A stretch of 63,711 nucleotides of DNA, counting the filler, from Reclinomonas americana ATCC 50394 (taxonomy: Eukaryota), in assembly GCA_048213135.1 (NCBI GenBank). It is 9 parts of 5 records of this genome, joined end to end, with 100 filler letters (N's around TTAATTAATTAA, not from the genome) between each part and the next. Parts side by side here need not be neighbours in the genome. Positions count along the whole stretch, not along the records: positions 1 to 19,655 come from PS015176.1; positions 19,756 to 25,762 come from PS015176.1; positions 25,863 to 32,338 come from PS015176.1; positions 32,439 to 42,535 come from PS015176.1; positions 42,636 to 46,998 come from PS015177.1; positions 47,099 to 57,372 come from PS015178.1; positions 57,473 to 59,780 come from PS015179.1; 2 more parts are not named here. One strand, written 5' to 3'. Under the pieces are notes generated by a model. It saw only the letters and a list, made by a program, of their open reading frames with translations, had not been told where the DNA came from and ran no database searches. Below are positions 638 through 58,555 of this stretch, in pieces. The translations under genes were made by a program, and so were the position numbers. Numbering within the stretch: the first letter of the stretch is position 1; each line of letters begins with the position of its first letter.

Positions 638-3191
638 NNNNNNNNNNNNNNNNNNNNNNNNNNNNNNNNNNNNNNNNNNNNNNNNNNNNNNNNNNNNNNN
701 NNNNNNNNNNNNNNNNNNNNNNNNNNNNNNNNNNNNNNNNNNNNNNNNNNNNNNNNNNNNNNNNNNNNNNNNNNNNNNNNNNNNNNNNNNNNNNNNNNNN
801 NNNNNNNNNNNNNNNNNNNNNNNNNNNNNNNNNNNNNNNNNNNNNNNNNNNNNNNNNNNNNNNNNNNNNNNNNNNNNNNNNNNNNNNNNNNNNNNNNNNN
901 NNNNNNNNNNNNNNNNNNNNNNNNNNNNNNNNNNNNNNNNNNNNNNNNNNNNNNNNNNNNNNNNNNNNNNNNNNNNNNNNNNNNNNNNNNNNNNNNNNNN
1001 NNNNNNNNNNNNNNNNNNNNNNNNNNNNNNNNNNNNNNNNNNNNNNNNNNNNNNNNNNNNNNNNNNNNNNNNNNNNNNNNNNNNNNNNNNNNNNNNNNNN
1101 NNNNNNNNNNNNNNNNNNNNNNNNNNNNNNNNNNNNNNNNNNNNNNNNNNNNNNNNNNNNNNNNNNNNNNNNNNNNNNNNNNNNNNNNNNNNNNNNNNNN
1201 NNNNNNNNNNNNNNNNNNNNNNNNNNNNNNNNNNNNNNNNNNNNNNNNNNNNNNNNNNNNNNNNNNNNNNNNNNNNNNNNNNNNNNNNNNNNNNNNNNNN
1301 NNNNNNNNNNNNNNNNNNNTCCCGCTGCAGTAGGGCCCTGACCACGTACAGTGGAGATGTCAACGCTGCGGTCAACCAGTGACGGATGCGACGACAGAGG
1401 AGTGTCGCTATCACCCTGTTGCGTTTGCAGGCCCTGCTCGTTCACGTGGCGCCATCTTGCACGCATGCTCACTGCCCTCGCAGGGAGTGAGTGCTTCTAG
1501 GTTGTCGCTTCACGCCATCATCCTACTGACACGTGTGCGCACTCTCCTCGATGTGTTCTCGCCTCTGTTCGATGCAGCAAGTTGCGTCGGCGGGTAGCAT
1601 AGTGCTGTCATGTCTGTGTGATTTACTCAACTAGTATCGTTTCATGCCTGTGCGCAGCAAGTTGAGTTACTCGTCTCGTGAGCAGCAATATGTTTGTGTA
1701 ATTTGTTGCTGATATCCGATGCACCCCAACATCGTGCGTGGAGCAGGCGGTGAGTGCATGCGTGCTGTTCCCTCTTTTGATGTGCCTGCTCACCATTCGG
1801 TCCCGTGCGCAGGTGGTGCGTGAACTGTTGCCTCTGTGTGGTCTTGTTACCGCGTTTGTTTTTTGGTTGTTTGTTCACTGTGGCGACCCTGCTCGCTTCT
1901 GCATGGATGGCTGCAATCGTAGCGGGTGAGTGAATATGTGTCCGTGTTTGTGTCACAATGAAAAAGACTGCGTTGCTCACGTGATGCGCAGCCGGTGAGT
2001 TCTTGTGTAGGCGCCATTGAATCTTGTTGAGCTACTACTGACGGGCACTCCTTGGTATCACGCGATTCCCAATCACAGCCGGTGAGCTGATGAGATATGA
2101 GTGCATTAATGTTCTCTGGCTGCCATTGCTTGCTCACTGACTTTCTCTTTCTCATGGTCGCAGTCGGTGAGTGATTTCCAGCTGCGAAACCCTTGATTCG
2201 TTCTCACATTGAATGTTTGGCTGACGCTCGACTACGATGAAATACAGGAGGTACGTGCCTGTCGTAGTCATATCCGTGGCCGCAGCGTCACGTGTCGGCT
2301 CACCGTTCAATCGTGTGTCTGTCTGTTCCTTTTTCTGCCGATTCGGTACAGATGGTTCGTTCCCTAGTCCTTGCTCACACTGTGCGTCTTTCGCTACTGA
2401 CTGGCAACGGGCACAGGGGGTCTGTTACTGGGGATACGATGTGGGCATGCTACTATTTGTCTGCTTGTCTGTGCTATCTCGCATGTGTGTCGTCAAACAT
2501 TCCTCTTGGTCTCTGCGATAGTGGTACGGGAGTAGTTCCTTTGTCCCCTTGCTTTGTTCGCTGTGATGTGTGGGTTCTGCATCGTGTTTCTGTTTGTGCC
2601 TCACAGATTGACTTCTTGCATGTTCGGACGGCAGGGAGTTGCGTTGTTGTGGCTTGGTGTGCTGTTTATCTTGTCTTCTCACTCACACGTACATTTATCG
2701 TTTGCCTGACAGACCGTTGCGTGGCGTAGCGTATTTCCCAGCTGCTCATCCTGTTTACTCACTCACACATGGCCACACGGCGGCGTTGGAACACCGACAG
2801 GCGGTACGTCTGCTTGGTTCTGTCTCTGTTCTCCCGCGCCCATTATCTCACTCGACCCGATCCACCACTACGTCTTTGCTGTGATGTGAGCAGGAGGTAT
2901 GTAATTCTGCAAGTATGGTGTGCTGGGAGTTTTTGATTCTCATTTCTTTTCCCCTTCGCAGTGGGTACGTTTTCGCCAGCAAACAACATCGTTGTTGTAG
3001 CCCGACTCATGTTGTTGTTCGTGCTCGTCTACTTCCTCGCTGGTACTGTACAGACGGTGAGTTCTTGCAGTGTTCATCGTGCTGCGGCGCACTGCCCACA
3101 CTCACAGTGGCACACTGCACAGTGGACGTGTTGCAATCAATCAGTGGGACCGCAGGCTGTTGGATGTGTTGTCGGCAAACACGTGCGGTGA
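1..3191 (+). CDS. 5'-partial gene: polyQ/Ser-Pro region, short coiled coil and a C-terminal Cys/His zinc-finger (REXO1-N/Btk-motif-like) whose loop is encoded by 19 micro-exons
   Basis: Phase-0 exons at 1-147, 223-303 (GSLSDLVRALAQQNRSANEDREQLQLQ) and 368-442. After the gap, exon 1352-1417 reads WRCQRCGQPVTDATTEECRYHP. Micro-exons span 1484-3056. Last exon 3123-3191 reads WTCCNQSVGPQAVGCVVGKHVR*. The first micro-exon, GGA, supplies the G of YHPG. Further exons may lie in the gap. Confidence 0.8.
546..637. repeat. (GA)n microsatellite in an intron, running into an assembly gap; representative of many GA/CT/CA tracts in the window
   Basis: Seen directly; similar tracts near 5040, 5175, 9490, 10530, 13410 and 32445. 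Confidence 0.95.
1418..3122 (+). other. Tandem array of 20 spliceosomal introns separated by 19 micro-exons (18 x 3 nt, 1 x 2 nt)
   Basis: YAG|NNN|GT units: GGA 1484, CAA 1578, CAA 1658, GCG 1747, GTG 1813, CGG 1923, CCG 1992, CCG 2079, TCG 2164, GAG 2248, ATG 2352, GGG 2417, TG 2522, GGA 2635, ACC 2713, GCG 2801, GAG 2894, TGG 2962, ACG 3054. Donors match those of ordinary introns in the window. CTGAC/CTCAC branch-like motifs precede many acceptors. Confidence 0.85.
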
Positions 3192-3267
3192 GGCCCCCGC
3201 GGAATGCATGGAATCGCGAAATGTACGACCTGCAGGGAATGTGTGCTACGATGGAAATTACTACAAT

Positions 3268-57372: not shown

Positions 57373-57471
57373 NNNNNNNNNNNNNNNNNNNNNNNNNNNN
57401 NNNNNNNNNNNNNNNNTTAATTAATTAANNNNNNNNNNNNNNNNNNNNNNNNNNNNNNNNNNNNNNNNNNN

Positions 57472-58555
57472 NGGGCACGCCCCTCGTCGAGATGCGCCTT
57501 GGCGAGGTCGGCCACGTGATACACCACTTGCCGCAACTCTTCCGAGTCCTCGCCGCGGAACACGCTCTCTTCGGTGACCTTGAACTGCGCAGAGAGTAAG
57601 AGAGAGGGCTGACGCCAACGCACGGCAGCGCATCGCACCGCACCTTTTTCGTCAGTGTCGACGGCAAGTACAGTCTCCGCTTCGACGCGTGATACAGCGT
57701 CGCGCGCAGCAGCACCGACATGCCGATCGCCTGCCCTACGTGACTGGCCGCCATTTTCGCCTCCTCCGACAGCCCAAACAGATGCCGCGACTCGGCCTGT
57801 GCACACACACACCCCAACGAAAAGATCAGCACGCACGCACGCATGCACAGCAGCGAGTAGGGACAGACAGACGAACCGAAACAGGCAAGGTGGGATTTCG
57901 TCGCAACGTCTGCATACTCAAGTACAACAACGACGAGGTGGTGGCCTCGGTGAAGTTCTCCAGCGACGACAAGTCCGCCGGTTGCTTCCCCGCCAAGTCC
58001 TCTGTCTGCATCAACGCAAAAAGTCAGCCAAGCAACCATGCAACAACAGGAACTGCAAAAAAAAAAAAACACAACTCGGTGATGCAAAATGCGATCAAAC
58101 AACGATCGCGACAAGCCGTACTCGCCCACCACGTGCGCCAACGCGCGAGCAATGGGCTGATTGGGCGGCTGCCCTGCAAAGCACTGGTCGAGTGTGTCAC
58201 GCCACCATTTCATCCGCAGTGCGCCCAGTGTCGGATCCGACACAAGCTCCGGCACAGTGGTGACTGCCACATTGAAGGCACGCAGCGCAAAGAGCGCGTG
58301 TCGTTGGGCGGCAGGAGCAATCAGTGCACAGACATAGTTTTCCCAGTCGCGCTTCCTGTGTGCGTGTCAGGGTGAGAGAGGAGGGTGTGAGTGTGTGTGT
58401 GTGCATGCAGGTAACTTTGTCTCTTCCACGCAGTAGGTAAAGGCGGCATCGTCGGCGCAGTATAGTGAGGATGCGGAGGCGGAGGTGGTGGCGGGTGAGG
58501 TGCTGAAGAGTCTTTGTGTGGTGAACCACAGTCGTCTTGTCGTTGAGAGCCTCAT
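57472..58555 (-). CDS. NDUFAF6: NADH dehydrogenase complex I assembly factor 6 (squalene/phytoene synthase fold), 3'-partial
   Basis: Spliced: YCVEETKKRDWENYVCAL...ALFALRAFNV...LRMKWWRD...PPNQPIARAL...AASHVGQAIG...RRLYLP...LADLAKAHL-like helix; mitochondrial presequence-like N-terminus. Confidence 0.88.

Follow-up and report, generated by a model that had tools for sequence, protein, structure and literature searches.

The window analyzed here is a 63,711-base stretch of eukaryotic nuclear DNA from Reclinomonas americana ATCC 50394, which includes 6,264 N and consists of several contigs joined by linkers, and its genes appear to use two kinds of 5' splice site. The window is rich in short introns that begin with GTGAGT, GTGCGT, GTACGT or GTGTGT and carry a CT[CG]A[CT] branch approximately 20-30 nucleotides (nt) ahead of a YAG acceptor. 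In addition, sites of the form GTT(G/T)CG(T/C), in which an extra T follows the initial GT and the later consensus is displaced by one base, are, to judge from the signals described below, genuine GT-AG 5' splice sites that make up a second regular donor class (the shifted class), with 19 strict members and four near-matches among 127 modelled introns. The predicted donors, their abundance, their dependence on the last exon base, the confinement of the inserted base to T and the change of class at homologous introns are each established by these comparisons, and inside the window the observation holds, on solid statistics.

A first-pass annotation of the window had listed 26 donors of the GTTNNGT type. 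The motif GTT(G/T/C)(C/A/T)G(T/C) was found at all 26 coordinates on the strands given, and the last exon base there is A, C or T in every case. Splice-aware dynamic-programming (DP) gene models chose 22 of these 26 sites as donors. The donor score in these models was taken from intron positions +3 to +8 only, through a mixture seeded with both classes, and exon bases therefore played no part in donor choice. Among the other four sites, the one at 1661 (+) follows only the pattern of the exon array described below, while GTTCCGT at 13137-13143 (+) and GTTGAGT at 56061-56067 (+) stand 20 and 27 nt ahead of N blocks, respectively, and cannot be judged. The fourth, GTTGCGT at 5387-5393 (-), is unsupported: the GA-rich repeats downstream of it yielded no acceptor, and it is absent from the models. 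Two shifted donors outside the earlier list were supplied by the DP model, both CAA|GTTTCGT, at 49779-49785 (-) and 47789-47795 (-), together with near-matches having a base other than T at +7 (43348, 48848, 47498 and 49618). Within 45 nt of the shifted donors, few other GTs are in frame, and their motifs are poor. Two other procedures were discarded: a gene finder accepting any GT as a donor took in-frame decoys, such as 38401 over 38395, and was abandoned, and a first expectation-maximization motif search was over-fitted and was not used.

The motif was also examined by a model-free scan, in which GT-starting 7-mers were scored for a downstream CT[CGA]AC followed by the first YAG 45-130 nt away. 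GTTGCGT ranked first among the 7-mers, with these signals behind 12/27 occurrences, where the background rate was 0.112 (p = 1.3e-5); GTGAGT gave 15/73 in the same scan. When the inserted base was A, C or G (GT[ACG]GCGT), the branch and acceptor signals were at background level (3/36), and T is the sole extra base seen in shifted donors.

The two classes differ in the last exon base. The set of 127 was obtained by keeping introns that scored 4 or more at the acceptor and were no longer than 330 nt, and by removing duplicates that shared 80% identity over 50 nt. The last exon base is G in 39 of the 52 introns in the canonical register (+5 G, +6 T) and in one of the 19 shifted (GTTNNGT) introns (Fisher p ~1e-7); it is G in one of the four near-matches (GTTGCG followed by C or G) and in 31 of the 52 introns classed as other or doubtful. 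Counted from the exon side, 39 canonical donors and one shifted donor follow G, and 13 canonical and 18 shifted donors follow another base. The association remains under stricter filters (p still <=6e-5) and is also found among GTT-starting donors only, where +5 G with +6 T occurs in 6/6 sites after G and +6 G with +7 T in 18/19 sites after non-G (p = 4e-5). Only one candidate among the shifted donors, CGG|GTTGCGT at 62586-62592 (+), follows G; it opens a candidate intron of the 5' untranslated region (62586-62665), which closes with TTCCAG and ends 15 nt upstream of an ATG at 62681; because of this location, the reading frame cannot check the exception. A non-G exon end does not force the shifted form, since a canonical T|GTGAGT is present at 29320-29325 (+), at the short-exon position of a TIG repeat. 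A test of the -1 base that dispensed with gene models, requiring only the motif and a downstream acceptor, gave no information, as GTGTGT repeats made up most of its canonical class.

Three of the junctions are fixed by homology. Two of these lie in a classical tyrosine phosphatase gene (37514-39342, minus strand). At the first, CCCT|GTTGCGT (38567-38573), splicing to CAG|AT joins ...NKNRYSDYLP to Y-AENAVHL and restores the conserved aromatic residue after LP (LPFD, IPYD and LPYN in homologues). The second, CGA|GTTGCGT (38389-38395), lies between GYINASLVR and GHNLGITHNYIATQAP (GHN..YIATQAP). An intron starting with TT, with the G left in the exon, was considered and rejected, since LP-Y of the phosphatase would become LP-C and the GT rule would be broken. 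The third junction, CGA|GTTGTGT at 58069-58075 (-), belongs to an NDUFAF6-like (SQS_PSY) gene, which together with a WD40 gene occupies 57.5-59.7 kb on the minus strand; one exon ends in ...FDRILHHR|GTTGTGT and the next starts with TEDLAGKQPADL..., and the two abut at alignment columns 116/117 without a gap relative to ten homologues (consensus ..AREXDL..). BLASTP comparisons of the 43-residue second exon with single homologues were non-significant, and it was the multiple alignment that settled this junction. From frame and homology at 38573, 38395 and 58075, and from phase at 16546 and 26036, the cut is predicted to fall at GT one base upstream of the place expected from the consensus.

The phase argument comes from the TIG-repeat genes, part of a set of several paralogous NHL/IPT-TIG repeat genes at 9.4-30 kb on the plus strand. 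Every TIG repeat is split alike, and the short exons (56-65 nt), whose lengths are all 2 mod 3, end in phase 1. Their ends read G|GTGCGT, G|GTACGT, G|GTATGC, T|GTTGCGT or, at 29320, T|GTGAGT; the shifted form occurs at 16546-16552 (+), where the homologous exons have G|GTGCGT or GTACGT, and at 26036-26042 (+). As a side observation, each IPT/TIG-like repeat consists of a long exon of 217-250 nt (ending in ..V+TG, phase 2) and one such short exon, and this structure is strictly periodic over at least 12 repeats (15366-16870, 21723-23360 and 25980-28365 on the plus strand).

Homologous introns of these genes change class together with the last exon base. The pair singled out in the first-pass annotation was confirmed as listed, TGG|GTGAGT at 10160-10165 (+), placed by homology, being paralogous to ACT|GTTGAGT at 17306-17312 (+). 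A second switch opposes AG|GTATGT or AG|GTGTGT (13601 and 19958) to AA|GTTGCGT at 17617-17623 (+) and at its paralogue 10468-10474 (+), for which the homologous repeat position 13601 reads AG|GTATGT. The donor AC|GTTTCGT at 10279-10285 (+), in the first copy of the NHL/TIG gene, is the paralogue of CA|GTTGCGT at 17427-17433 (+), and A|GTTGCGT at 15294-15300 (+) has a near-identical copy at 21650-21656 (+). Near-identical NHL/TIG gene copies are located on different contigs, one of them inverted (21961-23360, plus; 24059-25755, minus), and others at 13479-15600 and 19839-21950 (+). Exon lengths and donors are common to these copies. Whether they arose by recent duplication or are haplotypes assembled separately, their introns are not independent counts; several shifted sites are paralogues or possible haplotigs.

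Five shifted donors belong to an unusual array at 1418-3155 (+), in which 18 consecutive GT-AG intron-like units of 62-107 nt are separated by exons of exactly 3 nt. Each unit has a CT[CG]AC-type branch, and the stretch 2420-2634 is irregular. The first intron begins with CCT|GTTGCGT (1418-1424), a choice of the DP model. The DP model and the array pattern together give CAA|GTTGCGT (1581-1587), GGA|GTTGCGT (2638-2644) and ACC|GTTGCGT (2716-2722), and the 3-nt-exon pattern alone gives CAA|GTTGAGT (1661-1667), where the DP model took another path. The earlier count for this array held for the four shifted donors after five non-G exons and for the unshifted donors after all G-ending exons; the G-ending 3-nt exons number 13, not 14. 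When compared with one another, the array introns proved not to be recent duplicates. No precedent for arrays of 3-nt exons was found in a narrow full-text literature search, which is not proof of absence.

Further features distinguish the shifted class. All 19 strict members have T at +3, G at +6 and T at +7, with G or T at +4 as at canonical +3, and 14 of them read exactly GTTGCGT. The base at -1 is A in 10/19 (19% expected, p = 0.001), the base at -3 is C in 13/19 against 12/52 canonical donors (p = 7e-4), and +5 is C in 18/19 against 21/52 for the corresponding canonical +4 (p = 3e-5). Furthermore, all 19 introns are 62-85 nt long, whereas 19/52 canonical introns exceed 90 nt (p = 0.0016). 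In view of the -3 C, the -1 A, the +5 C and the short length, the shifted class is tighter than a canonical class with a T added. The canonical +6 C variants (GTGAGC and GTGCGC) are matched by a shifted +7 C variant (GTTGCGC). Branch and acceptor strength is equal in the two classes (mean acceptor scores of 6.66 and 6.55), and local alignment of intron interiors gave mean scores of 8.15 (shifted pairs), 7.78 (canonical pairs) and 7.87 (mixed pairs).

The mechanism by which such donors could be recognized was considered in terms of base pairing with U1 small nuclear RNA (snRNA). The standard U1 5' end is ACUUACCUG. Nearest-neighbour duplex energies were calculated with ViennaRNA using the U1 5' end as printed in PMC4856993, on the assumption that it is conserved in this organism. 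For the shifted sites, the mean energies were -0.27 kcal/mol when pairing was constrained to the canonical register, -0.45 kcal/mol in the shifted register and -0.56 kcal/mol in the bulged register, and -1.6 kcal/mol when it was unconstrained; the unconstrained means for canonical sites were -7.5 kcal/mol after G and -4.6 kcal/mol after non-G. With a human-type U1, the difference at shifted sites between the shifted and canonical registers (-0.45 versus -0.27 kcal/mol) is thus one between two negligible values. The first-pass annotation had proposed shifted U1/U6 pairing or a variant snRNA; this is partly supported and plausible in outline, since the sequence fits the logic of a one-base shift, but it is weakened by the energies, pairing with the textbook U1 being approximately nil. 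Because this pairing is so weak, simple shifted pairing does not explain the preference of the shifted form for non-G exon ends. Either recognition depends mainly on the proteins of the small nuclear ribonucleoproteins (snRNPs) together with U6 and U5, or U1 has a different 5' end. No U1, U5 or U6 genes were found in the window by an Rfam search at gathering or E<=1 thresholds, and the weak Rfam matches that were returned are low-complexity stretches adjoining N blocks.

Both donor classes reduce to G-(G/U)-U-N-N-G-(U/C), cut ahead of the first GU, which suggests a reading in which the shifted register is recognized by an ordinary U1; we regard this as the most likely mechanism, with even chances. 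The U1 snRNP would read the common motif in one fixed frame, with the contacts G:C9, U:A7 and GU:C4 + A3, and the cut would be set later by the catalytic core (U6, U5 and Prp8), directly 5' of the first GU. With G opposite C8, the exon would end in G and the intron would start with GTGCGT. With U opposite C8, the G opposite C9 would become intron position +1, the exon would not have to end in G and the intron would start with GTTGCGT. In the shifted register the -1 base would face U10 of U1, which would explain the preference for A at this position. The restriction of the insert to T, the -1 A (through pairing with U10) and the parallel between +7 C and +6 C all fit a fixed U1 frame. Every snRNA contact in this scheme is one that we infer.

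Several points weigh against recognition by an ordinary U1, or against the data on which it is built. With a human-type U1 the shifted sites pair more weakly (-1.6 kcal/mol) than the canonical sites that also follow non-G (-4.6 kcal/mol), and a plain shift gives no reason to expect the -3 C (13/19) and the +5 C (18/19). The single G at -1 among 19 shifted donors compares with an expected 16.7%, the frequency of G before GTT in exons (p = 0.15, not significant). The earlier statement that shifted donors occur only after non-G thus holds in the sense that the canonical preference for G is lost, and an actual avoidance of G is not demonstrable. In addition, the donor model was seeded with both donor classes, the junctions are predicted from sequence, and the sample amounts to a single 57-kb set of stitched contigs containing paralogues.

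An alternative to an ordinary U1 is a divergent U1 5' end or a U1 paralogue, for example with A8 and/or G5, that targets C-N-A|GUUGCGU, so that the shifted donors would follow a parallel code rather than result from sloppy pairing. A variant snRNA fits the tighter consensus of the class (+5 C, -3 C and 62-85 nt) at least as well as the fixed frame, given that GTTGCGT, +5 C, -1 A and -3 C are found in 14, 18, 10 and 13 of the 19 donors, respectively. For hypothetical 5' ends that carry A8 and/or G5, the calculated energies are -3.7 to -10.4 kcal/mol against approximately -1.6 kcal/mol for the textbook end; however, fitting a hypothetical RNA to the consensus is circular. Few RNA sequences in eukaryotes are as conserved as the U1 5' end, and the canonical donors are ordinary here and pair well with the textbook U1 (-7.5 kcal/mol). 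Expressed U1 variants are known in humans (PMC3561869 and PMC10870369). On balance a divergent U1 is rather unlikely. It is still more doubtful that the major spliceosome uses two parallel donor codes, each with its own U1 5' end, with the variant complementary to C-N-A|GUUGCGU and the last exon base selecting the U1. If this were true, the cleavage position and the U1 register would be systematically uncoupled in approximately one-fifth of the introns.

Alternatively, U1 and later U6 could keep their frame at +1 G and +2 U, with one U of +2/+3 looped out and GCGU paired as +3 to +6. A T-only extra base suits an ambiguous UU bulge, and whatever the register, U6 has to accommodate one additional base between GU and the paired G-U. 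The +2/+3 bulge register has been validated in human cells, and passages in PMC4856993 give 68 predicted human sites. However, the -1 base would face C9 in a bulged duplex and G should help there, whereas G is seen at -1 in 1/19 shifted and 39/52 canonical donors. The preference for A at -1 would be left unexplained, and the constrained energy is approximately -0.6 kcal/mol. A bulged U is considered a doubtful explanation.

A separate origin has also been weighed, in which one wave of intron gain by introner-like elements, with GTTGCGT termini and C-N-A targets, left a purely historical pattern. The uniform length of the shifted introns (19/19 at 62-85 nt, against 19/52 canonical introns above 90 nt, p = 0.0016) and their distinct exon context would agree with such a wave. 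However, intron interiors are equally alike within and between classes (8.15, 7.78 and 7.87), the array introns are not recent duplicates, and homologous introns differ in class but not in position, implying conversion in place. Since the interiors are no more alike within a class and the array is not made of recent duplicates, a repeated-element origin is unsupported; introner-like repeated introns were rejected on these grounds, and a separate origin is very unlikely. Least probable of all is that the junctions are misplaced or due to chance, with the true splice sites elsewhere and the motif coincidental: the prediction of junctions from sequence, the one unsupported site (5393, minus) and two unjudgeable sites (13137 and 56061) of the earlier list and the uninformative model-free -1 test would allow it, but the 7-mer enrichment needs no gene model, three junctions are fixed by homology, phase is kept across repeat units and in-frame alternative GTs are scarce.

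The shifted donors can be compared with several known systems. Splice sites in a +1 shifted U1 register were reportedly described in mammals by Roca and Krainer in 2009, and bulge-register 5' splice sites are said to have been treated by Roca et al. in 2012. As in the mammalian +1 shifted sites, the introns here begin with GU-U, the +2 to +6 consensus is found at +3 to +7, the exon-end G is dispensable and the cut is at GU. In contrast to that class, which is rare in humans, the donors described here make up 19/127 modelled introns; they read GUUGCGU, in which the C mismatches the textbook U1 and the duplex energy is near zero, and they have an exon consensus of their own, C-N-A. They resemble U12-type introns in forming a second, sequence-rigid donor class within otherwise ordinary genes. 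U12-type introns have the donor consensus (A/G)TATCCTT and a TCCTTAAC-type branch close to the acceptor. They were rejected as an explanation, the donors here being GTTGCGT and the branches (CT[CG]AC) and acceptors being like those of the major class. With the ordinary GT-AG introns of the same genome the shifted introns share branch and acceptor signals, genes and homologous positions; they differ in the extra T, in the loss of the -1 G preference and in comprising short introns only. The +2/+3 bulge register, as presented in passages of Tan et al. (2016; PMC4856993), likewise has an extra U directly after GU and a later consensus displaced by one base; however, it keeps -1G:C9 and +1G:C8, whereas -1 G is almost absent here (1/19).

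According to the same passages of PMC4856993, experiments in human cells have established both the shifted and the bulged U1 register, and the noncanonical registers together account for 1.5-2.1% of human 5' splice sites; in passages of a review, both registers are treated as accommodated exceptions (PMC9311317). A narrow full-text literature search found no organism with an abundant shifted donor class, and a lineage-specific report may exist. The mammalian shifted and bulged registers are rare exceptions that have been studied one minigene at a time, whereas an organism in which approximately 15-25% of the introns are of this kind would offer a natural system for separating the U1-binding site from the cut site. 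The same system bears on the real contribution of the -1 G and on the diversification of the U1 5' end. A gene finder that has learned only one donor matrix would call shifted introns wrongly in this genome and in its relatives.

The remaining shifted donors are distributed over both strands. On the plus strand they are T|GTTGCGT at 29835-29841, with a weak acceptor score (1.6), and A|GTTTCGT at 31136-31142, whose gene contains an H-type lectin-like exon. Those on the minus strand are CAA|GTTGCGT at 44649-44655, GGC|GTTGCGT at 50407-50413, in a coiled-coil gene that extends over 47-54 kb, and GCT|GTTGCGT at 54416-54422. The shifted-like CAA|GTTGCGC at 43342-43348 (-), with C at +7, opens an intron of 190 nt.

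The contigs of the window are linked by eight 100-base spacers (19656-19755, 25763-25862, 32339-32438, 42536-42635, 46999-47098, 57373-57472, 59781-59880 and 62329-62428), each a six-frame-stop linker composed of 44 N, TTAATTAATTAA and 44 N. As separate contigs have been strung together in this way, genes that adjoin in the window may lie apart in the genome. The closest database relative of the phosphatase (37514-39342, minus) has just 36% identity, the closest relatives of the NDUFAF6-like exon (57644-58354, minus) have 50-51%, and none of the proteins returned was identical; the collections searched appear to contain no proteome of a close relative of the organism. A word-index homologue search with the NDUFAF6-like exon gave no match, the PDB held no relative of it, and the short phosphatase and NDUFAF6-like exons, each searched alone, had no Pfam match. 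Further gene pieces are TPR, LEA-like and H-lectin-like. The LEA-like protein is encoded by a long open frame at 6359-7936 (+), which gave no Pfam match; it has the top coding score of the window and contains many 11-mer-type repeats (..AYDKAKDVAGAVADK..).

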